Shown: positions 3,464 through 60,200, numbered from the stretch's first letter. The stretch: 64,000 nt of DNA from a virus (IMGVR_UViG_2938655777_000006:16983-80982); one strand, 5' to 3'. Translations and numbers: made by a program. The notes: generated from the letters alone by a model not told the origin.

Positions 3464-3477
3464 CTGGGGATAGTTAA

Positions 3478-33099: not shown

Positions 33100-33986
33100 T
33101 ATAATACATAATGTGATGGCATCCTTTAATCTGGGGTGTCATTTTTGCATTTCACTAAAGAATTGAGGATACTGTAACTCAATCGTGATGAAAAAAAGTT
33201 GAATCGTAAATTGAGGTTAAATGGATGAAAAACGTATATGTTATAAGGGTTTGTGGGATGAATTGGCTTGGTTTTGGGGCTATTGAATCGTAAAAGTATA
33301 AACAGTGAAAGGATAATATGATACAGGGAAGCTAAAAATGATCAAAAAGTGTGTAGTTACAGAATTGTAATGAGAGATAAAACATAGGAGAAATAAGGAG
33401 TTAGACGATTCAAGTTACGATTGAGATGAGGGGGAAATATGATGTGAAAGTTACAAAGATGTAATAAATGAAAACAATGAGTTGAAAAAATAACTTGAGT
33501 GTGGGAGTGGAAGTGCTAGGGGTATATTTATAAAAAATAGGTGTCTTCTGGATGTAAACTACCCCCCACTACCCTATTCTAAATGAGGTAAAACCATAGT
33601 TGTAGCGCATTTAGAAATATTTATCAATCAAGCAGCCACCAACAATATCCATACTCTACCAGTTAAAATAAATGGAAATTATTTTCAGAAATATATTGAA
33701 TCTCATTTTTAAATTTGAACTTTCACGCCATTGCCTATAGTGGGGAAAGCAGCAATACAGCAACTCAATCGAACTGTAACGGTAATAGCGTGAGATAAGA
33801 CTTATATCCACAAACTATCAATCACATCTAATATATCAATATTCCCTATATATCCAGCTTATCTCATAGCCTATATCTATATCTCATCCTATCACTATCT
33901 CTCAAAATTTTCTCCTCTCTTTATCAAATTTATATACACAAATATAATGAAATATGTTATAATAATATATGTAAGGGGGTGATAAC

Positions 33987-37498: not shown

Positions 37499-37702
37499 AT
37501 GAGGAAAAAGAATTTGAAGCGAAAACCTGACAATATATCGAGGCTATATTGGAATTACCTTCAAGGCAACATAGATCCATCTGAATTAACTCCAAAACAA
37601 TTTAATCAAATTGTACTGGAGCAATACATTCAATATAAACAGCATGATGGATATAAGTCCTTTGAAGAGTATTATCAATACATTAAGTCAAAAGGATTAT
37701 AA
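37499..37702 (+). CDS. Hypothetical protein
   Basis: ORF track; SD AGGTGG; stop forms the arm of a junction palindrome. Confidence 0.65.
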   Translation: MRKKNLKRKPDNISRLYWNYLQGNIDPSELTPKQFNQIVLEQYIQYKQHDGYKSFEEYYQYIKSKGL

Positions 37703-37840
37703 AACTGATATTTTACATGGTTTATATAGACTGGTGAAAGTGCAAATCTAATAAACAAATATAATCATATACTTGAATATAATGAAATGGTGTGTTATAA
37801 TGAATTCATAAGGTAAGTTAATACATAGGAGGCGGTTACG

Positions 37841-38029
37841 GTGAAAAATATAAATGTTGGTGCATTAAGAGGAATGCTTGCATATATAAATACAATTACT
37901 AGAGATGAACGGAAATTTACCGAAGAGATGGAGAAAAAAGAACGTTTAAAAATTAAATTCACAGAAGATGAGAGAATTAAATTGTCCATTCTGATTGGTA
38001 AAATGAATGCTTGGTATTTTAGCTATTAA
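37841..38029 (+). CDS. Hypothetical protein
   Basis: ORF track; SD AGGAGG. Confidence 0.65.
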   Translation: MKNINVGALRGMLAYINTITRDERKFTEEMEKKERLKIKFTEDERIKLSILIGKMNAWYFSY

Positions 38030-38179
38030 GTCGTCAGAGCGACAATAAACCGCATTAGGCTCTGAGCGTTAGCCAGTTAAAGCTGGCTAGGTTGCAACGG
38101 TAACAATATATTGTAATGAGTAACGATGTACTGTAGACAACTTAAAATACTCATTTTATAAGGATATGGTGGGATAAAC

Positions 38180-38368
38180 ATGTTAGGGAAAAAGGCATTT
38201 TATTATGCGGGTACTCAGCGCATTGATTCAATTGTAGTAGGTTTTGAAGGTGGATATTACAAGTTATCCAATGGACATTATTTTCATGGAGCAACAAAAG
38301 AGCATTGGGACTTTGATGCGGTATTGACTGATGCCGAAGGCAATCCTTCCAAGTTGATTTTTTTATAG
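38180..38368 (+). CDS. Hypothetical protein
   Basis: ORF track; SD-like sequence upstream. Confidence 0.6.
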   Translation: MLGKKAFYYAGTQRIDSIVVGFEGGYYKLSNGHYFHGATKEHWDFDAVLTDAEGNPSKLIFL

Positions 38369-38639
38369 TAAATGAGTGATTTGATCTAAATTATTAATAA
38401 AAATAAAACGTATCTGGGGGAAATAATTATGAATATCAAAATTACATCAACTGAATCGAATATGGTAACTGTAGGTAAGGAATATAAAGTGAATGACACA
38501 TTAGGGGATTTGCTCTTTGTTATCGGTGATGATGGATCAGAATTTAGCTTCATTGCAAATGATTTTGTTAAATTTGATGTGATTTAAATCTAAGTAAAAT
38601 TCTTGTTTTAACTAAAAAACAATTAGGAGAGTGGTAACA

Positions 38640-38918
38640 ATGAATATGACTATCGAGGGAAACAAAACAAGTTACCTTTTAGGGGATGAAATGATTTTGT
38701 CTATTGTAACGCTTGAAAACAATAACTATGTAGTGGAAAACAAATTCAACAAGATGGTTGGGTATTGTAAAAAAATAGACGAAAAAAACTCTGAATACAA
38801 AGTTACTGAGCATTACAGCAAAGGACAGAATGGACGATTATATAAGACAAAGAAACTATTAAAACACAATGAAAGTTGGTTCGCCTACATTCTCAAAGAG
38901 ATGGGTTTTCTCAACTAG
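38640..38918 (+). CDS. Hypothetical protein
   Basis: ATG 38640 after SD AGGAG. Confidence 0.65.
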   Translation: MNMTIEGNKTSYLLGDEMILSIVTLENNNYVVENKFNKMVGYCKKIDEKNSEYKVTEHYSKGQNGRLYKTKKLLKHNESWFAYILKEMGFLN

Positions 38919-39060
38919 AAAAGGCCGATGCAACTTTGCTTCACTTAAGTATGAATGTATGAATATTCATTATAAAAAGTATAATGCTCGCATTTTATGA
39001 TATTATCATCCACAATACTGTATATTTATAAATAACTTATGATAGGAGAATGAAAATAAT

Positions 39061-39285
39061 GTGAAGATTGATAAATTGGTGAAACAAATTACTAAGAAAC
39101 TTGATTCTGAAGGATTGTATTATGAAGTATCTGGTGATCAATATACATTCGTTATAATACATACTAATCATTGCACAATTGAGATACACAAGAATAGTAT
39201 TACGGTTAATGAACAGCCTGTAGTAGATATTGAAGAAATGATGGAAGAAGTCATGGAAGTTGAAGGTGGGGTATATGTGGGTTAA
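39061..39285 (+). CDS. Hypothetical protein
   Basis: ORF track; SD AGGAG. Confidence 0.6.
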   Translation: MKIDKLVKQITKKLDSEGLYYEVSGDQYTFVIIHTNHCTIEIHKNSITVNEQPVVDIEEMMEEVMEVEGGVYVG

Positions 39286-39372
39286 GTTTATGTAAAATGC
39301 TTATTTGATTGTATTTATTCCTTTAATATTTATAATGAGAAATATAACTACATAAAAGGAGAAATAAAGAGA

Positions 39373-39654
39373 ATGGCAGATTACAAAATAACTTCATTTA
39401 CTGATAACAAAGTTGTGCTAAATTATAAGGGATCTGAAGATATCACTTTAAAGTCGATTGTTAAGATTCAATTTGTTACTCTAAGACATAAAGACGGTGT
39501 AACGAAAGGATTTTCTTTTGATTCATTGATTCGCTTTATTAAGGAAGATGGTAATACTTTTCAATATCCTAGAAGTAAAATTAATTTATCTGAGACAGAG
39601 AGTTTTCTGAAAGATAAGAATGCCCCAATTGAGCATTTAGATGAATTTATGTAA
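39373..39654 (+). CDS. Hypothetical protein
   Basis: ORF track; SD AAAGGAG; bounded by palindromes 39293 and 39658. Confidence 0.65.
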   Translation: MADYKITSFTDNKVVLNYKGSEDITLKSIVKIQFVTLRHKDGVTKGFSFDSLIRFIKEDGNTFQYPRSKINLSETESFLKDKNAPIEHLDEFM

Positions 39655-39734
39655 GTATAAAACCAGTCTTTTACTAAAACAAGAATCTTGATGGTTCTTG
39701 TTTTTTATTCTGGTTTTTAAGATCAGATGATACA

Positions 39735-40208
39735 ATGTATATAAACAAGTATAAGGGGGATCAGAGCTTGCCTACACCTACTCAAAAGAAGTTCAATAGA
39801 AGTATGGCTAAGATTGAAAAGAACTCGCGTAAGAATAGTTCTGAGAAGGTATACAGTTACATCCAAGATAGGTACATAAGTGATTACTATGATAGAGAGC
39901 CTAAAGCGAGGATAAGGGTTAAGAAGCTTCAAACATTTAAGTATATGACCATTGCCACAATAGCGGTATTCTTTTTCATTTGTTTTGTGTTTGCACCATT
40001 CAATAGATTTGCAGCAATACCTTTCACAACCATGGTTAGCGCGGTTCCCTTGTTGCTATTGGGTATAATTCACCCCAGTTTAGCATTTATGGATGGTAGG
40101 TCGAGAATTACTGTTATTTGGGTCTACGTTTTAATTTTTATAGTATCTTTTATTGTTGCTGGTCTTATGCTTGGGGTTGAGGTACCAGCGCATAGCGTAC
40201 AAAATTAA
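39735..40208 (+). CDS. Membrane protein (3 C-terminal TM segments)
   Basis: Basic N-terminus and hydrophobic C-terminal half. Confidence 0.65.
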   Translation: MYINKYKGDQSLPTPTQKKFNRSMAKIEKNSRKNSSEKVYSYIQDRYISDYYDREPKARIRVKKLQTFKYMTIATIAVFFFICFVFAPFNRFAAIPFTTMVSAVPLLLLGIIHPSLAFMDGRSRITVIWVYVLIFIVSFIVAGLMLGVEVPAHSVQN

Positions 40209-40255
40209 CAACATCCTTCTAAGGCTATTTAATTATAATAAAATGTTACTTCATA

Positions 40256-40297
40256 AAAAGAAGCGCTGAGTAATTATCTCAAACGCTTCTTTTTTTG
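40256..40297. terminator. Bidirectional intrinsic terminator
   Basis: AAAAGAAGCG...CGCTTCTTTT between convergent genes. Confidence 0.7.
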
Positions 40298-40418
40298 TTG
40301 TTAGTTATGCCAGTTATTATATAGCAGTCTGGATAAAATATATAGAACAAGTAATACGCCAAGTACTATTCCTAAAATCGTAATTGTCTTTTTTTTCATA
40401 TTTTAAACTTATCCTTTA

Positions 40419-41123
40419 TTATGACTTTGAAAATGATGCATCCCAAGTACCGTCAGTAAATCCCCAAATAGTATGTGTGCCAGTTCCGACAACTGCACCA
40501 AGCGACGAGTGTATAAAGTTCCAAGTGAAATACGCTGTCTCGTAGGCTCTAGTTTTATTTGAATTGATATATGGCTTATCTTCTTTGATGGTGATATTCA
40601 CAACAGGGAACCAATTTCTAGTTACGATTCCACCGCCGTTTAATATTTCAGTTACTTTTCCTCCGCTAACTCTATACTGAACATATACTTGAGTTGTAAT
40701 AATATTGATACCAAATGTAGAAGCGACTGTTTCTGCATGAGGCTTGTATTCAGTTGCAAATGGAGTAATGGTATGATCGGGTTTGTTTTGGTTTACCCTC
40801 ACTTTTATATCTCCATTGTATAGGTCTGCATTTTCTCCATTTTGCATTGCATTAAAAATAGCTTTAATTGCTTCAGGATTATTCATGTAATCAACAAATT
40901 TCTGTTGATCTTCTTTTGAGAGACTTTGGAACTGCTCTAGAACAACAGATGAATCATTATCGTTCTGCGAGCTTAGACCTTTATTATTGGACTTTAGATA
41001 GTTAATATAGTCCTCTGGGGTGTTAATGGTTGAATCCTGTGCGTTAACCGAGTAAGGAAGAACGCCTAAAAATAATACCAACACAACAAACAAACTTAGC
41101 AATTTTTTCACTTTATTAATCAC
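40419..41123 (-). CDS. Secreted protein (Sec signal peptide), moron-like
   Basis: MINKVKK + hydrophobic core + VNA cleavage motif; opposite strand to its neighbours. Confidence 0.75.
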   Translation of the reverse strand: MINKVKKLLSLFVVLVLFLGVLPYSVNAQDSTINTPEDYINYLKSNNKGLSSQNDNDSSVVLEQFQSLSKEDQQKFVDYMNNPEAIKAIFNAMQNGENADLYNGDIKVRVNQNKPDHTITPFATEYKPHAETVASTFGINIITTQVYVQYRVSGGKVTEILNGGGIVTRNWFPVVNITIKEDKPYINSNKTRAYETAYFTWNFIHSSLGAVVGTGTHTIWGFTDGTWDASFSKS

Positions 41124-41346
41124 TCCTTAGTAATAATAGTAAAACAAAACCATTTGATGACTTGTTATGGATTTGATTTACAAGGAATATACTACCATGC
41201 GCTAAATAAATTATCAAAAATTAAGAGAGGGTATCAAATTGTTTTGTTTAACAAATGAATATAATGAAATATATTGACTTTAAGTAAGTGGGATGATATA
41301 TTAATTGCAAGAGAACATTAAAATAAATTTTAACGGAGGTGAATAC

Positions 41347-41523
41347 ATGACGTTAAGAGAAAGAACGCTTAAGTTAATAATAGAAAGAGGAATAAAGAAA
41401 TCATTTATTGCTAGTAAATTATCAATAAGCAATTCGTTGTTCTCGCTATTTATTAATAATAAGCAGCCACTGCAAAAGCCTGAAATAATGAAACTTGAAG
41501 AACTAATCCAATCTTACAAATAA
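41347..41523 (+). CDS. Small HTH (Cro/XRE-like) protein
   Basis: ATG 41347 after SD GGAGGTG; KKSFIASKLSISNSLFSLF. Confidence 0.7.
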   Translation: MTLRERTLKLIIERGIKKSFIASKLSISNSLFSLFINNKQPLQKPEIMKLEELIQSYK

Positions 41524-41547
41524 ATAAAAATATAAAGGAGAATTACT

Positions 41548-42606
41548 ATGGGAGCTTTGTTGAAGATAGATAACTTTGTTGAGGATAAAAATGTAAGAGA
41601 TCAATACATAGATAGAACTGAAGTGCTTGAAAAAGTGAAATCTCTTTCTATGTTGCCTGACAAGAAACATATGACTGTTAGAGCAGTTGCAGATTTTTAT
41701 GAGGTAGAATACGCCGTAATAGGAAATATGCTTACCAGATACAAAAAAGAGTTTCAAACGGACGGTGTTCATACTTTAACAAGTAAGGATGAGGCTTTTA
41801 ACAAGTTGACAAAAGCCTTGCCCAGCAAGCAATTTGTCGTGAAACTGCTTCCCAAAAGGGCGGTATTGCGAATAGGAATGCTACTAAGAGACAGTGAGGT
41901 GGCAGTCAAGGTAAGAGACTATCTCCTGAAAGTTGAAGAAATATCTACTGTAGAACAAAAGAGAGGCGTTTGGACAGATGCCGATTTGATAACACTCAAT
42001 GAGATAATGAAAGATGAAATTAATAAGGGGAATAGTAAATGGGGTGCCATTAGAACGGCAGCAAAAGTCATTAAAAAGAATCCTCATGCAATTTATCAGA
42101 AGTATCAAAATATCAAAAAGAAACATGGAACATTAGAAAAATTTATTGAAGAAAATAATCTTATTTATTTGAATGCGCAATCCAAGGAAGTTCATGAAGA
42201 AATATCATTAGTAACTGAATCACTAGTAAATGAAGAACAGCAGAACGTAGTAGTAGGAACTTTTCAAACAAAGATGAATAAAATGCTTAATGATATGAAA
42301 AATATTAGCGATTTGGAATCAACTATTAATGAGTTAAAATTAGAAGTCAGAGATCTGAAACATCAACTAGAAATTAAAGAATTAGAATTATCAGCTAATG
42401 CTGAAATCATTACTAAGAAAGGCAAGGTTATTAGTAAGTATAAGAAAGAAAAGTTAGCTTTAGAAGCAAGTATAAAAGCAATCCGAAAAATAGTATTAAA
42501 CGGTGCGAGGGTAAGCAGCGCTGAGCGACAAAATGCTTTAGAATCAGAAACTTTAGGGCGTAAGTATACGCAAGAAAAGAGTGGCATAGTCGAACTAAAA
42601 TCATGA
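41548..42606 (+). CDS. Antirepressor-like DNA-binding protein with Myb/RsfA-like domain and coiled coil
   Basis: VADFYEV and RAVLRIGMLLRDSEVA..VRDYLL antirepressor-type motifs; WTDADL... Myb-like segment. Confidence 0.6.
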   Translation: MGALLKIDNFVEDKNVRDQYIDRTEVLEKVKSLSMLPDKKHMTVRAVADFYEVEYAVIGNMLTRYKKEFQTDGVHTLTSKDEAFNKLTKALPSKQFVVKLLPKRAVLRIGMLLRDSEVAVKVRDYLLKVEEISTVEQKRGVWTDADLITLNEIMKDEINKGNSKWGAIRTAAKVIKKNPHAIYQKYQNIKKKHGTLEKFIEENNLIYLNAQSKEVHEEISLVTESLVNEEQQNVVVGTFQTKMNKMLNDMKNISDLESTINELKLEVRDLKHQLEIKELELSANAEIITKKGKVISKYKKEKLALEASIKAIRKIVLNGARVSSAERQNALESETLGRKYTQEKSGIVELKS

Positions 42607-42799
42607 CAATGAAGCTGAGTCTATAAAGGCTCAGTTTTTTTCATTAATGACAAACAATTAAATATAATGAGTGTTGATATATTATATAGAAGTGTGTTAT
42701 AATTTACCTAACAAAAGGGAAACAACGTATCGTAAATAGCAACAATGTACTGTAATAGATGATCAAACAACGATTTTATAGAGAAAGAGAGGGCATTAA

Positions 42800-43039
42800 A
42801 TGAATGTTTATGTTATAAGGACAAACCAAGGGTATGTAAAGAGCATTCATAGAAGTAAACTCTTTTATACTGATAGCCCAGAATACGCTAAACTATACAA
42901 TTCATCACACAAATGCACTGTGGCAATGGCTAATAATAAGCCGCTATTCAAGAAAACTTCTCCATCCATATACTGTATTAAAGCTGAAATTGAAGCGCTT
43001 GAGGAAATAGAGAATTCATGTCTATCTCAATATTGGTAA
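42800..43039 (+). CDS. Hypothetical protein
   Basis: ORF track; bounded by palindromes 42763 and 43048. Confidence 0.65.
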   Translation: MNVYVIRTNQGYVKSIHRSKLFYTDSPEYAKLYNSSHKCTVAMANNKPLFKKTSPSIYCIKAEIEALEEIENSCLSQYW

Positions 43040-43347
43040 ACAATCTATGAAAACAGTATTTGATAAGGAAGGAGAAAGTAGATGAGTGATAACAAATCAG
43101 TCAACTTTTAAATAACAATAAACGAAAAAGTATCAAATGGGGATTTGATTGATTACGAAGGGAAAACGATGTATATAACAAAAATCAATACAGTTGAGAT
43201 AACACCGGATGGAAAGTTGCTTGTGGTAGGCTTATGCAAGGAAGAACAGATCAGTAGAGTGCTTCGGAAATTCTCAAGACATAAATAGATTGAAGATTAG
43301 CAAATTGAACAATACCTTGCTTAAACAAAAAAATGGAGGCTTTGATT

Positions 43348-43563
43348 ATGCGTAAATATAGAAAAGAAAATGGATTTATGTATATAGATTGGGAGATGTC
43401 TATTGGTTACCCTGGTGCAACACAAGAAGGAACAGCAGAAATTGAACTGACTGAAATTGAAGATAAATCAGATTTGGAGCAAAATGAAATTATTAGCCAA
43501 GCGATATGGGAAGATGCAATGCAGTATGTTGATGTATATCCCAAGAAGACTCAAGGTGAATAA
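43348..43563 (+). CDS. DUF7167-like small acidic protein
   Basis: ATG 43348 after SD GGAGG; SIGYPGATQEGTAEI motif common in Bacillales phages. Confidence 0.55.
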   Translation: MRKYRKENGFMYIDWEMSIGYPGATQEGTAEIELTEIEDKSDLEQNEIISQAIWEDAMQYVDVYPKKTQGE

Positions 43564-43607
43564 ACGTTGTAAAAGCAGGATTTCATTAAAAAGAGGAGAG
43601 GGAGACT

Positions 43608-43838
43608 ATGAAGGAACATACAGGCAAGGTTGTAAGATTTTCTAGTAACAATGGAAATGAGTTTCGAATGGGTGATCTTGCTATATGCATGAATGGAGAG
43701 TCTGGACTTTTTCTAGGTCTTAGTGGAGACAATTTTATGCGTATGTGGTATGAGTCAGGCAAATTTAAAGTGATGCCAACACTTAAGCCAGAAATTGAAG
43801 AACTTTTGTCTAAAGCTCGCTGTAAGTACTTTGAGTAA
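43608..43838 (+). CDS. Hypothetical protein
   Basis: ORF track; SD GAGG. Confidence 0.6.
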   Translation: MKEHTGKVVRFSSNNGNEFRMGDLAICMNGESGLFLGLSGDNFMRMWYESGKFKVMPTLKPEIEELLSKARCKYFE

Positions 43839-43957
43839 AGCACGAATTTATTAAAGCATTTTTATGAGAGAGGGGTTATGTATTAATAAATGAGGTTCTA
43901 ACTCATAGTGAAAAACAAATTGTTCTTTATTCTAAAGGACATTTCCAAAAAACAGAT

Positions 43958-44248
43958 ATGTTTGAGGATATCAGACAAATCACAGCAAAAGCGTTTTCTA
44001 TTCCAGTTGAATCAACTCACTTTTATCACCTGTATAATTATATTACATCAATCTTTTTGAAATTACATGAAGCGGAATACATAACGGAAAGCATGGAGGA
44101 CTTTTTGTGCAGCCTCTTTAAGTGGAAACCTGTTTTAAAACCTGAAGACATGGTAACCAAAATGATTGGACAGATATCAATAGTCAAGGCTTCAGGTTTG
44201 TATCTAGGAGAGGCAGATGATGCGTATTTACTAACCAACAAGAAATGA
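43958..44248 (+). CDS. Hypothetical protein
   Basis: ORF track; weak SD. Confidence 0.45.
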   Translation: MFEDIRQITAKAFSIPVESTHFYHLYNYITSIFLKLHEAEYITESMEDFLCSLFKWKPVLKPEDMVTKMIGQISIVKASGLYLGEADDAYLLTNKK

Positions 44249-44274
44249 ATTAAAAATAAAAGGAGTGCACAAGC

Positions 44275-44616
44275 ATGACAGAAAATGATTTGGACGAGTT
44301 CTTTCTTCCAAGGCTGCAAATTAAATGCGTGAACATAAGCAGTGATTACAGAATTACAGAATGGAAGTATGAATTAGTATACAAACATTTTGATAATGAT
44401 ATTGCTTATGTTTCATTGGGGTCTACAAAAAGAGAAACAGGAAGAACTGAAATACCATTGAATGAAGATGGAACACTAGATTTGCCATTTAGAGATGGTG
44501 TCCATATTAAGCATGATGCTATTCAATTAAACCTGCCCGCATTCGCAATATGTGGAGATATTATTCAAAAAATTGATTTAATTAAATTTAAAAAGAAGCT
44601 CCCTGAGAGGTATTGA
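44275..44616 (+). CDS. Hypothetical protein
   Basis: ORF track; SD AAGGAG. Confidence 0.7.
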   Translation: MTENDLDEFFLPRLQIKCVNISSDYRITEWKYELVYKHFDNDIAYVSLGSTKRETGRTEIPLNEDGTLDLPFRDGVHIKHDAIQLNLPAFAICGDIIQKIDLIKFKKKLPERY

Positions 44617-44768
44617 ATTAATAAAACAGTTATTTTACAAGGAGGTAAGAAAAGAAATGCCTAAATGGTATAATGACCCATATTGTATTTTCGCCTTCTG
44701 TGTTGCAACTCTGACTGTTATTGTAGTGATGATGTTTAAATATGTTTTTTAATAGAGGAGATGAAGAG

Positions 44769-45059
44769 ATGGATTTGAATAGAACATTAATACATATGGG
44801 ATATGGCATTGATTCTTTAGGCTATAAAAACATCAAGAACGAAAAGCAAGAGTTGATGTTGGATATTGCAATTGAACTAGCATCAACATTGTGGAAGTCA
44901 AATAAATTAGATAAATTTGATCTGATTTCTTTTATTGATAGTACAGTTGACGACTTTATAGATGCATTGTATGACGAATTCGAGATTAATCCCGATATAT
45001 CAAGAACAGAATTTATATATGTTTGGTATAAAGATAAAATTCATAAGAACTTGAAATAA
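44769..45059 (+). CDS. Hypothetical protein
   Basis: ATG 44769 after SD GAGGAG. Confidence 0.65.
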   Translation: MDLNRTLIHMGYGIDSLGYKNIKNEKQELMLDIAIELASTLWKSNKLDKFDLISFIDSTVDDFIDALYDEFEINPDISRTEFIYVWYKDKIHKNLK

Positions 45060-45300
45060 GAAGTGCTTAACAGGAGGTAAATATATGAAAGTGTTTGTAA
45101 TACTCGAGGACGTGGAAGAGGCATACGTTTTTAGTGTCAACGGGGTTTTGGTGGAAATTTTTCAAAGTGAAGAAGCAGCAAAGGCATTTTGTGATGAACA
45201 TAATAGAGAAAGACCTTATTCAGAATATTACTATGAAGAACGAGAAGTACGTAAAAGTTGAATTTTACAATGTAAAAAACACATAAGGAGTGGCATATTT

Positions 45301-45540
45301 ATGAACCCACAAGCAATGCAAGAAGCTATGACATTGATGGAAAAGGCAAGGAAGTATGACGAATTAATCGCTTTTCCAGAAAGAGACTATGAGTTGCGCT
45401 GTTCATTTTGTGGTAAGGGTCAATCTGAATTAGATAAAATGGTGACAGCGAAGAACGTGTGTATTTGCAATGAATGTATTGGAGTATGCGTAGAAATTAT
45501 TGCTGAAGATGAGAATGAAGGAGTCAGTACTAATGAATAG
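45301..45540 (+). CDS. Stand-alone ClpX C4-type zinc-binding domain protein
   Basis: CSFCGKGQSELDKMVTAKNVCICNECIGVC closely resembles the ClpX N-terminal ZBD. Confidence 0.85.
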   Translation: MNPQAMQEAMTLMEKARKYDELIAFPERDYELRCSFCGKGQSELDKMVTAKNVCICNECIGVCVEIIAEDENEGVSTNE

Positions 45541-45792
45541 GCAGTGGTTTGTAAAAAGGATCATTCCTATAAGCGCAGTAATCTATGCGATTCTGTCAAT
45601 TGGAATAGCGTTAATGTCGAAGTAATTCAGAATACATAGAACACCTAGTAAAAGCTTGAACAAAAAACGTTGATTCGTTTCATGAATATTAGCTCTTTAC
45701 AGTTAGGAAAACTTATGAGCTAATAAGAGAAGTGATTCGTCGCAAGATTTGGTATACACACTACACTGATAAACAGCTTAGAGGTGAACAGC

Positions 45793-46077
45793 ATGACTTT
45801 ACATAAGTGCAAGAATGAATTTTGTTCAGGAAACATTGTATCTGATTATAAAGAAGCTGAATATTGTCTTAAATGCTATATGGATATGTTGAAAATTCTT
45901 CCCTTGTTTCACATACCAGTTGGAATTATGCCATATAAATCGGCAGAACAGATGAGAAATAACCCAAGTCAATGTAAGATGAAATTTTGTAAGAATAAGG
46001 CGCGGTTGAGAGGTAGATGTTTTAAGTGTTATATCGAGTTTACCAAAAAGCAAGAATCTGAGATGAAAAAGCTATAA
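45793..46077 (+). CDS. Cys-rich hypothetical protein
   Basis: ATG 45793; several CxxC-like pairs. Confidence 0.6.
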   Translation: MTLHKCKNEFCSGNIVSDYKEAEYCLKCYMDMLKILPLFHIPVGIMPYKSAEQMRNNPSQCKMKFCKNKARLRGRCFKCYIEFTKKQESEMKKL

Positions 46078-46219
46078 AAGATTAATTTGACCAAGATCGC
46101 TTAGGCGGTCTTTTTTATATAATTAAATATAATGAAATTATAGAAAACCTATATACAAAAATAATTAAATGAAGTATAATAAAAACATAGAAAAGAACAA
46201 TACATATGAGGTGATAAGC

Positions 46220-46375
46220 ATGTGCAAGGTAACCGTGTTTGAGAAGGTGCTAGGTAAATTAGAGGCGAATATATATTCGTTCGATGATAAAATAGAAATG
46301 GCTAAGTTTGCCGCTCTATGTGAAGCAAATGGTGCAATGGTTGTTATAAATATTGGTTCAAAACAAACGGTGTAA
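46220..46375 (+). CDS. Hypothetical protein
   Basis: ATG 46220 after SD GAGGTG. Confidence 0.6.
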   Translation: MCKVTVFEKVLGKLEANIYSFDDKIEMAKFAALCEANGAMVVINIGSKQTV

Positions 46376-46888
46376 AACTATATTTTTATTACAAGTGACG
46401 AAATAATATAAAACAAAGGAGCCGATTATTATGAAAGTGAAATTGACAATTACTATCGAGATTGATGAGAAAAAATATCCTAATCTTACTAAAGAAACTA
46501 TTCGGACAGAATTGCAAGGGAACTTTGATCTTTACATGCAACAAGTTGAAGAGGAAACAAAGAATTTGCTTACAGATATGAATAGGAATGCATCTAATTG
46601 AGGTTTTGTCAATCTTGAAGAAGCTTGTGCTTTGTTGAGGATTGAATTGAGTCTAAGAAAAATAAAATGATGCTTAGATAGGGAGTGTGAATATGAGAAA
46701 TATTTTTGTAATTGACCCTGAAGGCGACACCAACCAGATCTGTGAATGTGGAAAGGATGCTATGTTTGTGTTGGGTATTAGCAGTGACCAAAATCCCCAT
46801 CATCTATGCGAAGAATGTTTAGGTGAAATTGCCAAAAGAATTATAGATGCATTAGTCTAAATCAAATGATCCTTTTAGAAGGAGTGAT

Positions 46889-47119
46889 TTGGAATGTCTT
46901 CAAGAAAACAATGGTTTGAAAAGTTCATTGGCTGCTGCTTTGGTATTGATGGTGAAGAATACATATTTCAAGGAACATTTTACTAATACCGAAACGAGCA
47001 GTGGCAAACCTTATCAGTATGTATTTGAAGCCGAAGGTAAGCCACAGATAATAATGATGTATAAAGAAGCTCGTTCCACTATGGGGGCGATGATTGATAA
47101 GTACAACAAGCTAAAATGA
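46889..47119 (+). CDS. Hypothetical protein
   Basis: ORF track; bounded by palindromes 46862 and 47112. Confidence 0.6.
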   Translation: MECLQENNGLKSSLAAALVLMVKNTYFKEHFTNTETSSGKPYQYVFEAEGKPQIIMMYKEARSTMGAMIDKYNKLK

Positions 47120-47145
47120 ATATTTCATAAGGAGATGTTGTTGAA

Positions 47146-47331
47146 ATGAACAAGCACAAAATACTTAGCACTATTGAAGAAACAGCAAAAGAATACGATT
47201 GGAGTTTAGATGAAGCACTTGAAAGACTTGAACAAATCGGCTTCGAAATTGGAGAGATAGAAGGAAATGAAAGGTTTACTGAGTCACACGTAAAGATGTC
47301 AGTCGATTTTGCCTATAATGCATCCAGATAA
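47146..47331 (+). CDS. Hypothetical protein
   Basis: ORF track; bounded by palindromes 47112 and 47329. Confidence 0.65.
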   Translation: MNKHKILSTIEETAKEYDWSLDEALERLEQIGFEIGEIEGNERFTESHVKMSVDFAYNASR

Positions 47332-47360
47332 AAAGATTATTTTACAAGGAGATGTAATTC

Positions 47361-47594
47361 ATGAGTAAGAAGTATTTGAGTTATGAAGAACAATTTAATG
47401 AAGTTCTAAATCAGGAAGAAATAAATCGTATTGAAAACGCCGAACTTAGAGACATTAGAATGAAGTACTGGAAATTACAGCGAGACATATTTCTTGATGA
47501 AAAAAATATATCAGATGAAGAATTAAATAAAGTTTCAAAAGAATTACAACGTAAAGAGATGGAAGAAATACAACGATTCAGAAACAAAAAGTGA
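47361..47594 (+). CDS. Hypothetical protein
   Basis: ORF track; bounded by palindromes 47329 and 47604. Confidence 0.65.
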   Translation: MSKKYLSYEEQFNEVLNQEEINRIENAELRDIRMKYWKLQRDIFLDEKNISDEELNKVSKELQRKEMEEIQRFRNKK

Positions 47595-48241
47595 GTAAGT
47601 TCATAAAAGGATTCTTTTAAAAGGAGTTGACCGTGTGTTAGATAGTTGTCCAGTCAAATATTTAGACGAAGAGTGTAAAAAGTGTGGCAGAATGAGAGTT
47701 GAGTTATGGTCTAACTGCGAAAAGATTTGTGAAAAGTGTAATTGGGATCAAGATAAAAACGAATATAATTTCGACTATGATTTATAAGTTGATCAAAGAA
47801 GTATTTCATGGGGAGAGGTAAAGATGACGAGAATTGATCTGGTAAGAGAACGTTTTGAGAATACCGTTATAGAAGATATAGATCAAAAACAGGCTTATTT
47901 AGATTTGATGATACTCTTTGATGAGATACACGACAGAGACATCCTTATCGATGATCTTAGGGATCAGATTGCTGAATTGAAGAAACAGATAAAATAAGTC
48001 TTTTAAAAACAATAATTCATATAACAACGGAGGAATAACTATGTTTACTGTGATCAATACAGAAACCAAACAATACCTTAGAGCAGATTGGGAAGAACAT
48101 CGCGGTCAACTATATACTCATGACATTGATCTAGCTGCAAAGTTCGAAAGTTGGCACGATGCTGAAGATATTATAGAAGTAACAGAACAAGTAGTACCTT
48201 TGTTCGATTAAAAAATAAATATAATTAAAGGAGTGTTTAAA

Positions 48242-48418
48242 ATGGATACATATATGATAGTCGTAGACGGAAAAGTAGAAGAAGAAATCGAGACCGCTGG
48301 ACGCTCCAAAGAAGCAATGAGTTATGTGTTAATTGATCGATTCTATCATTGGAAAGGTTTATCTGGTAATGTCAACATCTATAGCTCTTTGACAGGGAGT
48401 GAATATCGCTATGTTTAA
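48242..48418 (+). CDS. Hypothetical protein
   Basis: ATG 48242 after SD AAAGGAG. Confidence 0.6.
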   Translation: MDTYMIVVDGKVEEEIETAGRSKEAMSYVLIDRFYHWKGLSGNVNIYSSLTGSEYRYV

Positions 48419-48698
48419 AGCTGGGGCATTAAAAGATAATAAGCTGTATGTTAGGAATAATCAGGGCAAGTGGATTGAATTACATGAAGCAGCGAAACAA
48501 TATGAACAGCACAGAAATTTGAAGCATACATAATATAGATAGCCATAATGTGGTCTTTTTAATAAACAAAAATAATGAATATATTGAATGAATAAAAGAA
48601 ATGTGTTATGATTTATTTAACGATAGGTAAACATTGTAAAGGAACTAGTAACATAGTATTGTAGAGTTTGAAGAATATTGCGCAGAGGTGATAACAGA

Positions 48699-48860
48699 AT
48701 GAGTCAGGATAAAAAGAAGATATTCGTATACGACGAAGCAACTAAAAAGGAAATGGAAGTAGATGTTTCACGTATTGTCGCCTTTCAAGCTAGGACTATT
48801 AAAAGGAAGTCATTGTTGGTGGCTTTCATGGATGATGGCAATCAATACATTTTGTTGTAG
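48699..48860 (+). CDS. Hypothetical protein
   Basis: ATG 48699 after SD GAGGTG. Confidence 0.55.
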   Translation: MSQDKKKIFVYDEATKKEMEVDVSRIVAFQARTIKRKSLLVAFMDDGNQYILL

Positions 48861-48890
48861 TAAAAGGTTTATTTTATTAATTGGGGGAAA

Positions 48891-49121
48891 ATGACCATGA
48901 ATAAAGTGTTGGAAGCCAGTAGTAAGGTGACTCAAAAGCAATATAGTGCAGATGAAGCACTAAGGGAATTAAAGTCTGCTCAAAATGAGTATAATGATGC
49001 GCTTATTCAGTCTTGTATTGATGACATACTGAAGATTGTGAATGAAGAAGGAACTATTACGGGACGAGATTTAAAGATATTTCTAAAAGATTTAGTTACT
49101 AATACTTACAAAGTTAAATAA
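48891..49121 (+). CDS. Hypothetical protein
   Basis: ORF track; bounded by palindromes 48861 and 49127. Confidence 0.6.
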   Translation: MTMNKVLEASSKVTQKQYSADEALRELKSAQNEYNDALIQSCIDDILKIVNEEGTITGRDLKIFLKDLVTNTYKVK

Positions 49122-49167
49122 GGTTGTGAAATAACTATTTTACTATAAGAAAAGGAGGCATTCTATT

Positions 49168-49857
49168 ATGGACATATCAAAGGAACTCAAACCAACTAAA
49201 GGTGATATAGCTCACATTACAGCTAAAAACGCAATTGCTTCGATCCCAGTTCTGGGCAATTTACTGTCAGAAGCTTTTTCTTTGTTGGTGACTCAACCCG
49301 CTGAAAAGAGAAAAGAAAATATTCTTATAATGATTGATCAAAGGTTACAACAATTAGAAGGAAACTCTTTTGATATGGGGTCATTGGCAAACAATGAATT
49401 ATTTTTAAGTAGTGTTTTACAGGCAACGCAAATTGCTATGAGAACTCATCAGCAAGATAAGCTTGCCGCTTTGTTAAACATTGTTACTAACGTTGCCACT
49501 GACACAAGTATCGACGATAGTATAGTGCAAATGTACTTAAATATTATAGATACTTTTAATGAATGGCATTTACGTGTACTTTTATTATTAAATAATCCTC
49601 GTAAATACTATGTTGACAAAGGAATTCCTACTCATAATATTGTCACTGGTTCGCCTATGTTGGTATTGTACACTATTTACCCAGAACTAAAATCTAGAGA
49701 GTCATTTACAAAACAAATTCTCAACGATTTATTTCAAAGAGATATGATTTCAACAGATCCTTTTAATATGGTGGCAGTAATTAACGTCGACCGAATGTTG
49801 TCATCTAGAACTACTGAAACAGGTAAACATTTTATTGAATTTATCTCACAAAGATAA
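49168..49857 (+). CDS. Abi-alpha/DUF4393-like protein
   Basis: IPVLGNLL..., FLSSVLQATQIAMRTHQQDKL..L.N, C-terminal wHTH-like TETGKHFIEF; family recognised by eye only. Confidence 0.45.
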   Translation: MDISKELKPTKGDIAHITAKNAIASIPVLGNLLSEAFSLLVTQPAEKRKENILIMIDQRLQQLEGNSFDMGSLANNELFLSSVLQATQIAMRTHQQDKLAALLNIVTNVATDTSIDDSIVQMYLNIIDTFNEWHLRVLLLLNNPRKYYVDKGIPTHNIVTGSPMLVLYTIYPELKSRESFTKQILNDLFQRDMISTDPFNMVAVINVDRMLSSRTTETGKHFIEFISQR

Positions 49858-49900
49858 AATGACTGTTTTATCGCAATTTATAGAAGGAAGGTGTTTAGAT

Positions 49901-50236
49901 ATGACAAAACATTTATGGGAAGTTGAGCATCCTTATTATTGCAATTTGAGCAATTATCGTACAAAAGGAGACGAAGGAGGTTACGAATATAGTTCGTTTG
50001 AAGAGTTTTTGAAAGAATGGGATGATGCCGATATGGATTACCATTTGCTCTTTAGATGGGATTGGAAAGTGTATGACGAAGGTAGCGATGAATTACATAT
50101 GTTTTGGATGCTTCAGCGGAGAGGCGATTATCAATACTGTACAGTTAAAGTAAACAAAGAGGATGAGGATAAAGTAAAAGAGTTCTTGCAGCCAAGATGG
50201 GAGTATATGAAGACATTATGGGAACCTTTTATTTAA
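49901..50236 (+). CDS. Conserved phage hypothetical protein
   Basis: ATG 49901 after SD GAAGGTG; HLWEVEHPYYC, FRWDW. Confidence 0.7.
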   Translation: MTKHLWEVEHPYYCNLSNYRTKGDEGGYEYSSFEEFLKEWDDADMDYHLLFRWDWKVYDEGSDELHMFWMLQRRGDYQYCTVKVNKEDEDKVKEFLQPRWEYMKTLWEPFI

Positions 50237-50277
50237 ATCTCATGATGAAGAAGTGATTCATGTGAAGGAGCATTGCC

Positions 50278-50718
50278 ATGACAAATAAGATTAACCTCTA
50301 CGTAGACGACCTCAGAGACTGTCCAGATGGCTTTGTGGTCGCTCGTACATATTATGAAGCAATACATATATTTGAGACCAGAAGTGTCGGCATTCTTACA
50401 TTAGACCATGATTTAGGCGAAGATGTTGATGGCAAAGAGTCTAATTTTCACCCTACTGGAAGCATCCAAAGAAAATTTAAACTTGAGACAATTGATGAGG
50501 TTTCCTATCTGTTGAAAACCTATATTCATGATTTTGCATTTGGCATTCTGTACAACAACGTTCAGTTTTCACTCTATAAAGAGAGTGATACATTTTATGT
50601 TAGAAATAATAACGGACAAATCTATAAAAATAAATTTGATAAGCCTCCAATTACCTCATTATATGACATGAAAACTAACGAGATAGAAGAAGTAACCACG
50701 TTTATAAGATCAGCATAA
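50278..50718 (+). CDS. Cyclic-phosphate-processing receiver-like N-terminus fused to an unrelated C-terminus
   Basis: LYVDDLRDCP...LTLDHDLGED signature; the usual IHT.N C-terminal half is absent. Confidence 0.6.
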   Translation: MTNKINLYVDDLRDCPDGFVVARTYYEAIHIFETRSVGILTLDHDLGEDVDGKESNFHPTGSIQRKFKLETIDEVSYLLKTYIHDFAFGILYNNVQFSLYKESDTFYVRNNNGQIYKNKFDKPPITSLYDMKTNEIEEVTTFIRSA

Positions 50719-50835
50719 AATGCAAGTTTGATCAGTCTAATTTAATGTAAGGAACAACATAGCATAAAAATACTCAATTGGTATTCCTCTCTTGATTTTT
50801 TATATGCAAAGCAAATTGGAAGGGAGAAAAATAGA

Positions 50836-51114: not shown

Positions 51115-51563
51115 TCTTAATTTTGATGGCTGGAAGTGTTAAAAGTAGATTCAACTAAAAGATAGGTGAATTATGAGATGTATTGCGATAAGTGTGGTAA
51201 GAAGCTGGAGGATGTGCTGGAACATGTTAAACATATCCTCCATGAGTGCGATGGAGAGAATACATAAAATAGTAAGGGGAAGCAGTAATAATGGACGAGA
51301 ATGCAAGGGAGACGCTCAGAAAGGCTGTGTATTTAATAGGCATAGGGGAAGGTCTGAAGGCGAGTGAGTTATTGATTGAGTTGCTAAATCGCACAAATAC
51401 TTCTGTAGATTAATTTATGTTGTAAAATATACACACGTAGTATCATAGCAGTCCTAATTAAGTATGAAATTTTACGAAAAATAGCCGCTATCTTTGATCG
51501 GATGTTCGGCTATTTTTTATTTATCTTGCGTAAAATATAATTTTTATTAAGAAACCTGCCAAC

Positions 51564-52085
51564 TTACATGGCAGGTTCTTTGTGTTGAGGCATGTTTTTT
51601 TGTATTTGATCCGCTCTATGCAATATTTTCAATAAAGTGTCTAAATCATCACTAGCAATAGGTCGTCGATCTTCTTTATTGCTTTCTTGAATTTCTATAG
51701 TTAATTCAGTTATTTTATTCTTCTGTGTGCGTATGGTTTCTTGCATATTAAGATATTCGACTCGTAAATTATTTAAAGATTGAATAGCAATGTCTATTTC
51801 GTTCATAAAATTTATTTCAATCTTTTGAATGGGTGCAGCACTAATACTGTTTTTTGAGTTTATCTTATTGTTCATTCTCTCTTCTTTCGCTGCCTTTATT
51901 TCATTGTAATACTTATGTCTTAAAGCACTGTTCCAACGAAATCCGCATGCTGCTGCTGTACGATTAAGTTCATTCCCAACTTCCTGAAATGCGGTTAATT
52001 GCGTTTTATTACTACTTATATGGGTTAGAACCGTATTAGCTAGCAAATCATCTTCAGGTTGAGTCCAAGCATCTTGTCTATGCAT
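51564..52085 (-). CDS. RsfA/YlbO-family transcription factor
   Basis: RQDAWTQPEDDLLANTVL..I....TQLTAFQEVG..LNRTAAACGFRWNS signature. Confidence 0.9.
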   Translation of the reverse strand: MHRQDAWTQPEDDLLANTVLTHISSNKTQLTAFQEVGNELNRTAAACGFRWNSALRHKYYNEIKAAKEERMNNKINSKNSISAAPIQKIEINFMNEIDIAIQSLNNLRVEYLNMQETIRTQKNKITELTIEIQESNKEDRRPIASDDLDTLLKILHRADQIQKNMPQHKEPAM

Positions 52086-55219: not shown

Positions 55220-56554
55220 TTGAAAACTGATCGCAGAGAAGTAGAAAAAATAATCATTGAGATACTTGATGAACATAAGACAAATAGAAAAAAGATACTT
55301 AGCGTAAATGACAGATTAAACTCACTAGGAGTTCCTTATGGAACATTAAATGAGATTGTTTTAAAAAAGAAAAGCATTGAAGAGGTTAGTCTACCTTTAT
55401 TGTGTGTCTTTACTGAGAGCATTAATAGTGTTTTTGGCGGTTTAGATCCACTTGAATATTTTACAGCGACTGAAATTAGAGAAGCCAAAGAAAGTATAGC
55501 CTCAGAATTCGTTAGCGAAACAATAAGTCTACCTTTGACTTTTAATGTAATACAAATTGACGAAAAAGCATATTCATCAAAAATATCAGCCAAGCTTCTA
55601 AATAAGATGTTCGAATCGCAGATGATAATATATGATCCAAGATCTCAAAGAGGATTAAAATATAAAGGCAATCGCAATGATGGAATTATTGAAACGCCTA
55701 TTGTAAATCAGTCTTCCGTTAGAACTATTGCAAATAAACTTGTTGCGAAAGACTATCTAACTGATACCATAAGGTTTAATGTTTATAATTTTGAATCAGA
55801 GCCAGTAACTTGGATTCCAAAAGAAGACGATTTTGGACAATTAGTAATAAACAGAGACGCTACAATAAGTATATTAGATGGTTTTCACCGTTTACAGGCT
55901 ACTGTCAAAGCAATGAATGAGAAAAATGATTTAGATTTTAATTTTGAATTATCGATTAGAACTTATGATCAACAGACCGCTTCTAAATTTTTTGGTCAGA
56001 TAAACACAATCAACATTCTAAATAAAGACAGAAAGAAAGAATTGTCATCGGAAGGGCGTTCAGCTTCTGTCGTAAAAGAATTGCAAACAAACCAAGACAG
56101 CGAACTCAAGGGTATTCGAATTGCTTCTGCAACCAAGCCTAATACTGCTGTTGGACAGTTAACAACTTTCAGTATCTTAAATTTAGCGATTGAAAGAACC
56201 TTTAATCCTCAGACGTATCTTGATTATCAAAATGTATCTCACTATCTTGTGAAATATTTTGGTATTTTGATAAGTCTATATGTGGATGCTTTTTTGGAAA
56301 ATAGAGAAAAGTATGATAAAAGCTATATAAATCACCCTTTAATGTTTTTTGGATACACGGTGATTGCTTATAGAATGTATCAAAAAGATAATCAAAACAT
56401 CAGTCCTAAGGAGTTAAATAAAATAATTGATAATCTTGATTTAAGTAACGATAAAATACTGATAGATTTATTTGAGGCTAAAAGAGCTTATTCGTCTACT
56501 CGCATTCAAGTGGACATACTAAAACATTTCGAAAATTTAATTAAAGAGGTGTAA
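55220..56554 (+). CDS. DndB/DGQHR-like protein, SPbeta YopQ (SroE)-like
   Basis: QRG, ILDGFHRL, FGQINT motifs; 444 aa directly upstream of the YopR-like gene. Confidence 0.8.
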   Translation: MKTDRREVEKIIIEILDEHKTNRKKILSVNDRLNSLGVPYGTLNEIVLKKKSIEEVSLPLLCVFTESINSVFGGLDPLEYFTATEIREAKESIASEFVSETISLPLTFNVIQIDEKAYSSKISAKLLNKMFESQMIIYDPRSQRGLKYKGNRNDGIIETPIVNQSSVRTIANKLVAKDYLTDTIRFNVYNFESEPVTWIPKEDDFGQLVINRDATISILDGFHRLQATVKAMNEKNDLDFNFELSIRTYDQQTASKFFGQINTINILNKDRKKELSSEGRSASVVKELQTNQDSELKGIRIASATKPNTAVGQLTTFSILNLAIERTFNPQTYLDYQNVSHYLVKYFGILISLYVDAFLENREKYDKSYINHPLMFFGYTVIAYRMYQKDNQNISPKELNKIIDNLDLSNDKILIDLFEAKRAYSSTRIQVDILKHFENLIKEV

Positions 56555-60126: not shown

Positions 60127-60200
60127 TAATTAGCAAGGTGATTGACCTCATAAAAGAATACTTTTATCAAGACAGATTGTTACCAAAAGGCAATAAATAA

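Follow-up and report, generated by a model that had tools for sequence, protein, structure and literature searches.

Position-specific 18-bp palindromes at gene boundaries of SPbeta-like phages and their possible role as addressed crossover points

Results

The palindrome and its genomic context

The window investigated in this study, a stretch of 64,000 nucleotides (IMGVR_UViG_2938655777_000006:16983-80982), comprises bases 16983-80982 of a viral record of 201,847 bp with a G+C content of 36%, where many gene boundaries carry copies of an 18-bp interrupted palindrome, which are the subject of this work. The record belongs to a Paenibacillus prophage, which is, judged from its predicted proteins, a relative of the Bacillus phage SPbeta, a kinship reflected in the homologues of the terminase, YopQ, MrpR/YopR/SroF, YopP, YonO, YonN and YomM that are found in the window. 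The large terminase is 62% identical to the equivalent protein of Bacillus velezensis plaBV1, which encodes AimR/AimP and a yopP-yopQ-yopR block. Late genes run leftward from about 26.5 kb, whereas early and accessory genes run rightward.

In its strict form, RTVAAA-N6-TTTBAY, the palindrome is found 26 times in the window, the number already given in a first-pass annotation of this DNA, compared to 1.34 on average and at most 4 in 100 shuffles that preserve the dinucleotide composition. The whole record contains 67 strict matches, which are concentrated in the rightward gene block and spread over about 90 kb. Within the interval 37700-50731, for which at least 22 copies had been claimed, the strict count is lower and amounts to 17, with the other nine copies located at 3447, 4570, 7710, 11719, 20508, 23416, 51530, 60150 and 63026. 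Seven additional copies in this interval, at 38142, 38368, 38594, 46861, 47111, 47603 and 47989, deviate by one mismatch, and these are real members of the set since the same centre is found at the same place in related phages.

A scan of arm spacings between 0 and 14 in the whole record identified 67 matches at N6 and between one and eight at each other spacing, and inverse and direct arrangements of the half-site are not enriched. In a de novo scan for spaced palindromes, TAAAA-N6-TTTTA is by far the most over-represented, with 50 copies compared to about 2 expected. We have considered and rejected a relationship to the ComK box (AAAA-N5-TTTT, in paired boxes), as the N5 spacing accounts for 8 copies (4 in the strict form) against 67 and 50 at N6. 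The anatomy of the element is thus defined by constant inverted arms, RTAAAA and TTTTAY, surrounding a 6-bp centre, and its logo shows two symmetric features, the near absence of A at position 7 and of T at position 12. Beyond positions 1-18 there is no conservation except for a purine-rich Shine-Dalgarno sequence (SD) downstream. Since the dyad symmetry extends even to the degenerate positions, it points to a dimer that would read two RTAAAA half-sites at a centre-to-centre distance of about 11 bp. The 6-bp centres all differ within the genome, with no identical pair among 70, which agrees with what the annotation had stated for the spacers.

Placement at gene boundaries

The comparison of intergenic with coding positions that had been proposed as a check of the annotation places 53 of the 67 site centres outside called coding sequences, though coding sequence makes up 85% of the record (binomial p = 3e-31). 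Of the 58 sites in the plus-strand block, 48 start between -11 and +16 from the upstream stop codon, the TAA of the arm itself serves as stop at 15 sites, and 33 are followed by a start codon at a distance of 13-29 nucleotides, most often 18. The location between a stop codon and the following SD had been correctly recognized in the annotation. Each of the intervening genes, to which we refer as cassettes, has its own SD. Where terminator-like hairpins are present they come after the site, in the order stop codon, site, hairpin (at 39657, 46074 and 51530), which assigns the site to the gene boundary instead of to the SD. Promoter-like hexamers coinciding with sites were not found.

Conservation of centres and replacement of genes in related phages

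The genome of this study (G000) was compared with three whole related IMG/VR proviruses, G001 (IMGVR_UViG_2919367315_000003), G002 and G003. Together with G001 it forms a colinear mosaic, in which blocks of 66-99.9% identity are located between unrelated stretches, and BLAST blocks of 87-99.9% identity to G001 begin or end on sites at 37700, 43566, 45251, 46385, 47989, 48880 and 49853. In the interval, 22 consecutive pairs of sites carry identical centres in both genomes, and in about 15 of the 21 intervals between them the lengths differ and the proteins show no similarity. Among all same-centre pairs of the two genomes, 70 of 71 are colinear, and 62 of the 67 strict sites have a partner in G001. 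Each of the six pairs of the four proviruses shares 58-71 same-centre sites, all but one or two of them colinear, and for 60-68% of the same-centre pairs there is no homologous flank of 40 nucleotides on either side. As a pairing of sites by their centre is circular, a separate test considered the centre of a middle site when both neighbouring sites are cognate, that is, carry the same centre at the corresponding, colinear place. In 230 of 243 such cases the middle site has the same centre, while the backbone identity between these phages is only about 88-92%. This near invariance suggests the opposite of the Tn916-like tolerance of mismatched overlaps to which the annotation had referred. Rare variants of a centre do occur, an example being GAGGAG in G002. 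A scan for one centre led to three further proviruses with the same series of centres. Searches of a phage collection with the array by megablast, and of genome contigs with a 352-residue protein, gave no match.

Adjacent pairs of centres define slots, 33 of which are present in all four phages. Of these, 12 contain four unrelated alleles, 10 contain three, 3 contain two and 6 contain one. The sharing of alleles is incongruent from slot to slot, with G000 grouping with G003, then with G001, then with G003 and then with G002, from which it follows that adjacent slots were exchanged independently. Among homologous pairs of cassette open reading frames in the four phages, both flanking centres match in 316 cases, one in 137 and neither in 24. 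Since homologous genes keep the same flanking centres, alleles are replaced at fixed addresses with retention of gene order instead of being shuffled. From the proposal of the annotation, which envisaged the recombinase-driven capture and shuffling of cassettes, recombination at the sites is thus retained, with a recombinase as its putative agent, whereas the shuffling is contradicted by these numbers.

The location of the breakpoint is illustrated in the pairs where both flanks are unrelated (n=207). Here, an identity of about 30% outside of the site is followed by values of 62/100/70/100/100/93% along the left arm, with a symmetric fall along the right arm and a return to background directly after position 18. 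In pairs with one homologous flank, an identity of 91-100% continues through the arm on that side and declines to about 35-50% right past the other arm, so that across the 18 bp it changes from about 91-95% to about 35-45%. The variable arm positions are identical in 73 of 80 cases on the homologous side compared to 48 of 80 on the other side (p = 6e-6), and for the left arm in G000 and G001 alone the values are 19 of 19 and 23 of 51. As judged from these alignments, the breakpoint is located inside the 18-bp site, and gene-replacement breakpoints, which had been proposed as a further check, thus fall within the sites at a resolution of 18 bp.

The Bacillus phages SPbeta and plaBV1 share 21 centres, which are mostly colinear once the different start points of the records are allowed for, and whose flanks are mostly unrelated, which makes this pair an independent replicate of the pattern. 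Between the Bacillus and the Paenibacillus groups, centres are not shared beyond chance. The same 16-mer site with the centre GAATAC is found in the Paenibacillus phages (60150-60167), in SPbeta (128077) and in phi3Ts (118179), which is about chance for the comparisons made.

A separate observation concerns an extra small gene in G001 (at about 80373-80660), located between a partial and a full copy of the site CTATAT, the cognate of the site at 46372. About 17 bases are duplicated, and the partial copy consists of the left arm, the centre and TTT before it diverges, as if a cassette had been inserted. In a search for further partial duplications around insertions only this case was convincing, as the 9-mers used are too common in AT-rich DNA.

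Individual sites of the window

The sites are listed below in window coordinates, with the sequence of the centre and the relationship to the three proviruses.

3447-3464: junction site GGATAG, strict; just past the stop of the YomM-like gene; cognate and colinear in G001, G002 and G003
4570-4587: junction site TAGCTC, strict; ahead of the YomM-like gene; cognate in G001, right flank unrelated
7710-7727: motif copy TCCGTA, strict, within a late-strand coding sequence; same centre in G001-G003; status uncertain, both flanks being homologous in the relatives and hence uninformative
11719-11736: strict motif match in a coding sequence without cognate in any relative; probably chance
20508-20525: junction site TTCCCA, strict, intergenic, late region; cognate in G001-G003
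23416-23433: junction site TTACTG, strict; 3' end of the HU-like gene; cognate in G001-G003; in G001 left flank unrelated, right flank identical
33305-33322: one-mismatch site GGATAA; cognate in G001 and G002
37699-37716: junction site CTGATA, strict; cognate in G001-G003; both G001 flanks unrelated
38142-38159: one-mismatch site TACTCA; same 18-mer in G001; cognate in G002
38368-38385: one-mismatch site GAGTGA; cognate in G001 and G003; flanks unrelated
38594-38611: one-mismatch site TTCTTG; cognate in G001-G003
39292-39309: junction site TGCTTA, strict; cognate in G001; flanks unrelated
39657-39674: junction site CCAGTC, strict; cognate in G001; followed by a terminator-like hairpin at 39676-39704
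42762-42779: junction site CAACGA, strict; cognate in G001-G003; BLAST block ends at 42755
43047-43064: junction site ACAGTA, strict; cognate in G001-G003; G001 flanks unrelated
43132-43149: intergenic copy TGGGGA, strict; without cognate; possibly an extra joint of this phage
43569-43586: junction site GCAGGA, strict; G001 homology block starts at 43566
44621-44638: junction site CAGTTA, strict; cognate in G001-G003
45251-45268: junction site GTTGAA, strict; G001 block of 99.9% identity starts exactly here; left flank unrelated
46074-46091: junction site GATTAA, strict; TAA of the arm is the stop; cognate in G001-G003; terminator-like hairpin at 46093-46112
46372-46389: junction site CTATAT, strict; G001 block ends at 46385; extra gene of G001 at its cognate
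46861-46878: one-mismatch site TGATCC; cognate in G001-G003; flanks unrelated
47111-47128: one-mismatch site TGAATA; same centre in G001 and G002
47328-47345: junction site AGATTA, strict; TAA of the arm is the stop; cognate in G001-G003; following slot with four unrelated alleles
47603-47620: one-mismatch site GGATTC; cognate in G001-G003
47792-47809: junction site GAAGTA, strict; cognate in G001-G003
47989-48006: one-mismatch site TAAGTC; identical 18-mer in G001; block of 97.4% identity starts exactly here
48860-48877: junction site GGTTTA, strict; G001 block ends at 48880; this and the following centres also in the three further proviruses
49126-49143: junction site TAACTA, strict; cognate in G001-G003; flanks unrelated
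49854-49871: junction site TGACTG, strict; TAA of the arm is the stop; G001 block of 99.7% identity starts at 49853
50715-50732: junction site TGCAAG, strict; start of a long homology block; cognate in G001 and G002
51530-51547: junction site TATAAT, strict; cognate in G001-G003; adjoins a bidirectional terminator-like hairpin
60150-60167: junction site GAATAC, strict; cognate in G001-G003
63026-63043: junction site GACAGA, strict; cognate in G001-G003; in G001 left flank unrelated, right flank homologous

The slot between CTGATA and TACTCA, whose allele is different in each of the four phages, contains a Pistol self-cleaving ribozyme at 38029-38096 on the plus strand (Rfam RF02679, 60.5 bits; gathering threshold 34.5). 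The site at 51530 and its hairpin are located at the 3' end of a gene on the minus strand (51564-52085), which stands isolated as a leftward gene amid the rightward block and encodes a 173-residue Myb/SANT-like DNA-binding protein (PHROG 'transcriptional regulator').

Distribution of the motif and candidate proteins

The motif is strongly enriched in SPbeta (34 observed, 1.6 expected), plaBV1 (21 and 1.8), phi3Ts (30 and 2), Perkons (17 and 1.2) and Tsamsa (23 and 3), and it is absent in the Brevibacillus phage Sundance. The following genes of the window encode proteins that are relevant for its interpretation.

3478-4479, minus strand: YomM-like tyrosine recombinase of 333 residues; Pfam Phage_integrase and a SAM-like domain; 58% identical to SPbeta YomM
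23422-23745, minus strand: HU-family YonN-like DNA-binding protein; Pfam Bac_DNA_binding, 1e-28
26913-27986, plus strand: YopP-like Xer-type tyrosine recombinase of 357 residues; Pfam Phage_integrase; 29% identical to SPbeta YopP over the full length
55220-56554: DndB-like YopQ homologue, by homology
56559-57536, plus strand: MrpR/YopR/SroF-like master repressor; Pfam MrpR_N_CB and MrpR_C_cat; PDB 8A0A and 8BJ6, E of about 1e-22

The gene of the YomM-like protein is flanked by two sites and located just upstream of the tape-measure gene. The catalytic residues R, K, H-x-x-K, H and Y are kept, with R in place of K in the homologues of Tsamsa and 949. The presence of this protein fits most motif-bearing phages. 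It is a candidate recombinase, although its link to the sites is a guess. A YomM-like recombinase is also found directly upstream of the tape-measure gene in a Staphylococcus SPbeta-like phage, in Tsamsa and in the virulent Lactococcus phage 949, an odd yet conserved place for a recombinase. An alignment of the YopP-like protein with XerD matches each of the six catalytic residues. The best PDB matches of both recombinases are Xer proteins, whereas IntI4 is matched only with E = 0.012. The HU-like protein is a possible architectural partner or site binder, and in a panel of five genomes the genes of HU-like, YopQ-like and YonO-like proteins track the motif, being present in SPbeta, plaBV1 and Perkons and not in Sundance. 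Just downstream of the HU-like gene, a skipping-rope RNA is located at 23196-23284 on the minus strand (Rfam RF02924, 54.4 bits; gathering threshold 36.7). The 866-residue protein encoded at 23914-26514 on the minus strand is without Pfam match and 52% identical to SPbeta YonO, which we take to be a single-subunit RNA polymerase transcribing late genes, and it heads the late operon also here.

The MrpR-like protein is, as judged from its SPbeta counterpart, whose operator SPBRE differs in sequence from the palindrome, part of the context and not the binder of the sites. MrpR binds SPBRE at ten named SPbeta promoters defined by peaks in chromatin affinity purification sequencing (ChAP-seq) (Kohm et al., PMC10516654). 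Similar to the palindrome, SPBRE is a repeated intergenic element of the same phage family, and it is bound by a protein with a recombinase fold. However, what the ten MrpR-bound promoter regions have in common is a ACAAATACAAAWAATATGTATA-like element, which is asymmetric and present in about ten copies at promoters, whereas SPbeta contains 34 strict copies of the palindrome elsewhere, and we have thus rejected SPBRE as the identity of the sites. In SPbeta (NC_001884), ACAAATACAAAWAATATGTATA is found at 64140, 66415, 68705, 68769, 76195, 77884, 83407, 99580, 110900, 116149, 129204 and 129272; the element maps exactly to the ten MrpR ChAP-seq promoters, and at aimR it is located 9 bp downstream of a TAAAA-N6-TTTTA site. 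As there is no good match to ACAAATACAAAWAATATGTATA in this Paenibacillus genome, the operator of its MrpR-like repressor must be another one. The SroF box of phi3T, which is 26 bp long, asymmetric and bound by a monomer, is not the palindrome either (bioRxiv 10.1101/2025.11.27.690993).

Discussion

Relationship to known systems

The palindromes share properties with several elements that mediate the exchange of genes. In case of lox and FRT, only sites with identical centres recombine, and unlike pairs are used for recombinase-mediated cassette exchange. These engineered heterospecific sites are, by analogy, probably the closest match to our comparative data, with which they share constant inverted arms, a short centre and a swap between unlike sites that causes neither deletion nor inversion. 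They are, however, man-made pairs with 13-bp arms and a known enzyme, whereas the phages contain about 70 natural sites per genome with arms of 6-7 bp and offer only candidates for the recombinase. Integrons, to which the sites had been likened in the annotation, equally comprise cassettes of one gene each, at whose borders lie recombination-type sites that may contain the stop codon. Their attC sites are imperfect palindromes of 57-141 bp with R and L boxes (GTTRRRY core) and extrahelical bases, which are recombined as folded single strands by IntI at one attI, and their cassettes are without own expression signals and expressed from Pc. The integron label thus does not fit a genome where sites measure 18 bp and lack a stable fold and attC structure, where neither attI, Pc nor an IntI-type integrase is found and where each gene has its own SD.

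The 6-bp centre, which corresponds to the only enriched spacing, is a trait of Xer/dif sites, whereas the two different 11-bp arms of the 28-bp dif site are not found here, both arms being the same half-site. The pdif sites of Acinetobacter plasmids are 28-bp elements with two different 11-bp arms for the host proteins XerC and XerD, whose modules move between replicons (PMC6449649). The likeness lies in many recombinase-type sites with a 6-bp centre that flank single accessory genes, and the difference in arms that are short, identical and palindromic, with nothing conserved beyond 18 bp, and in modules that stay at a fixed address. The PeSL elements of T4-type phages are units of a strong, sigma-70-like early promoter and a terminator stem-loop that are nearly alike everywhere, recombine mutually, shuffle modules and make mini-circles (PMC2839356). 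PeSL elements and palindromes are both repeated intergenic elements in plastic regions of large phages whose relatives differ by the insertion, deletion or replacement of small genes, whereas the palindromes contain no promoter and no stable stem-loop, have their own centre in each copy and keep the order of genes. It is these position-specific centres preserving gene order which are the distinctive property of the sites compared to known cassette or joint systems. Our literature search identified no paper mentioning the palindrome, although it did not reach the 1999 SPbeta genome paper (Lazarevic et al.), and with respect to yomM and yopP it returned only papers on Yersinia.

Weighing of alternative explanations

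The sites could be envisaged to act in the mRNA, as hairpins for processing or translational control ahead of each SD, an alternative that had been listed for processing in the annotation. This would be in line with their constant placement 13-29 nucleotides before start codons and with a 5-8 bp A-U stem that some copies can form. Yet the arms vary without covariation, as illustrated by 21 A-C mismatches compared to 7 G-C pairs at positions 1/18 and by positions 3/16, where only 5 of 27 variant pairs can pair. Moreover, eight sites folded with energies of 0 to -5 kcal/mol, 3 of the 8 being unfolded or nearly so and most of them no better than shuffles, there is no Rfam match at the sites and the position-specific centres would be left unexplained. 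On the basis of independent arms and weak folds we have rejected this explanation, which is the least probable of those considered, and regard the site as an element of double-stranded DNA. The interrupted palindromes with unspecified centre that are recognized by SfiI and BglI suggest a different process, where a homodimeric endonuclease would cut inside N6 to generate site-unique overhangs and a ligase would rejoin cognate ends in order. Such rejoining would need identical centres, and SPbeta-group phages encode, according to annotation, ligase-like proteins and several HNH or GIY-YIG nucleases; still, none of them has emerged as candidate enzyme, and about 70 cuts per genome would be hazardous, which makes this process very improbable. 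Somewhat less remote, although still improbable, is an array of operators, where a repressor or silencer on about 70 sites would block early-gene transcription and where the match to mosaic boundaries would arise because both are intergenic. The number and placement of the sites, with tens of short elements in small intergenic gaps of a temperate phage that often overlap stop codons, recall the stoperators of cluster A mycobacteriophages, and the phage contains an SPbeta-type repressor operon. Stoperators, which are bound by the immunity repressor (gp71 in L5), are asymmetric, 13-14 bp long, orientation-dependent and all alike, whereas the sites described here are dyad-symmetric with position-specific centres. 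A centre that is not read should drift, yet it is the best-conserved part of the site even between unrelated flanks. Finally, many sites are located upstream of terminators or within operons and not at promoters, and SPBRE, to which the SPbeta repressor is known to bind at multiple sites, differs in sequence, lacks symmetry and occurs at about ten promoters.

The main rival to a dedicated recombinase, which we nevertheless consider unlikely, is an exchange by short homology at a protein-bound site. In this case, the arms would be bound by a dimer with a regulatory or architectural function, for which the HU-like YonN, the DndB-like YopQ/SroE or some helix-turn-helix protein may be considered, and an annealase or RecA would use the 12-18 identical bases of cognate sites, perhaps stimulated by stalling or nicking that the protein induces. 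The short, dyad-symmetric arms with half-site centres about 11 bp apart resemble operators of helix-turn-helix dimers, the genes of HU-like, YopQ-like and YonO-like proteins follow the motif in the small panel of genomes, the breakpoint is resolved only to 18 bp, ordinary homologous recombination is clearly active in this group of phages and the left copy at the G001 insertion is without a proper right arm, as in a microhomology join. However, 12-18 bp are well below the usual minimum for efficient homologous recombination, and the process would have to keep centres identical in 230 of 243 cases while wobble positions of the arms, which are only 3-6 bp away, are nearly randomized. It also offers no reason for constant palindromic arms at every joint. 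Binding of a nucleoid protein, the other alternative named in the annotation, is possible as a second role of the sites.

Addressed crossover points and their proposed mechanism

In the reading that we favour, with a probability of about 0.5, the 18-bp sites serve SPbeta-like phages as crossover points between genes, each of them fixed in place and with an address of its own. As reconstructed from the genome comparison, when related phages meet, exchange falls inside cognate sites and the gene of a slot is replaced by the allele of the other phage while the order is kept, the exchanged unit being, by the same reconstruction, a gene together with its ribosome-binding site and its stop codon. 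The exchange would be the work of a site-specific recombinase encoded by the phage, most likely of the tyrosine type, which would occupy the arms as a dimer, with strand exchange taking place across the 6-bp centre. The layout of inverted arms around a 6-bp centre fits, by analogy, the core anatomy of tyrosine recombinase sites, and its description as such in the annotation was fair, with intact tyrosine recombinase genes being present. Exchange would require identical centres, as at lox, FRT and dif, and because centres differ within one genome, deletions and inversions would be avoided. If exchange is frequent, it would itself keep the centres uniform in the phage population without selection, since a mutated centre would be lost upon replacement of a larger segment. 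A crossover in the centre would leave each gene with its SD on the side of the right arm and its stop codon on the side of the left arm. The candidate enzymes are the YomM-like (3478-4479) and YopP-like (26913-27986) proteins, and the HU-like protein may assist by bending the DNA. Taken further, though more tentatively, SPbeta-like phages might possess a natural cassette-exchange system with about 50-90 heterospecific sites per genome, where a dedicated recombinase swaps single genes between co-resident phages at high frequency and never scrambles their order.

Several observations weigh against this assignment of the sites as crossover points of a recombinase. No protein is tied to the sites, and the distribution of the candidates across phages is ambiguous and provides only leads: plaBV1 contains the motif but only a 24% match to the YomM-like protein, the Lactococcus phage 949 encodes a YomM homologue with the motif being only weakly enriched, and a YopP-like homologue is also found in Sundance, which is without the motif. 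In the SPbeta group, the YomM-like protein contains a Lys instead of the second catalytic Arg. The conserved arms, with only 6-7 bp, fall short of the 9-13 bp found in well-studied sites of tyrosine recombinases, the breakpoint is resolved to the 18 bp and not as finely as the 6-bp centre, and the similarity of the arm next to the non-homologous flank slightly exceeds background. Pairs of centres that are one base apart are only mildly depleted (13 compared to 22 expected, p = 0.02), and a selection for non-cross-reacting centres is thus not clearly demonstrated. Finally, in laboratory hybrids of phi3Ts and SPbeta (MT366946 and MT366948), where four of five crossovers fall into long stretches that are identical in both parents and are thus not placeable, the fifth is located in a 40-bp interval without a site, which indicates that ordinary homologous recombination also operates in this group of phages.

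Implications for phage evolution

The clean exchange of single genes at phage gene boundaries is an old open question, as most mosaic joints show no sequence that would explain them. In the phages described here, the joints are visible, countable and addressed, with about 70 sites per genome whose centres are retained in at least seven phages while the intervening genes are completely replaced. Even if genes were exchanged by short homology, these addressed joints would provide a precise map of the units of gene flow between phages. If an enzyme reads the sites, they would define a new class of gene-exchange system in SPbeta and phi3T, which are model phages of B. subtilis, explain the hypervariable slots for accessory, defence and counter-defence genes in this phage family and provide engineers with a set of orthogonal recombination sites for immediate use. 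The modular theory of phage evolution by Botstein reportedly postulated linker sequences, and the cassette-exchange system, if true, would be their molecular form.

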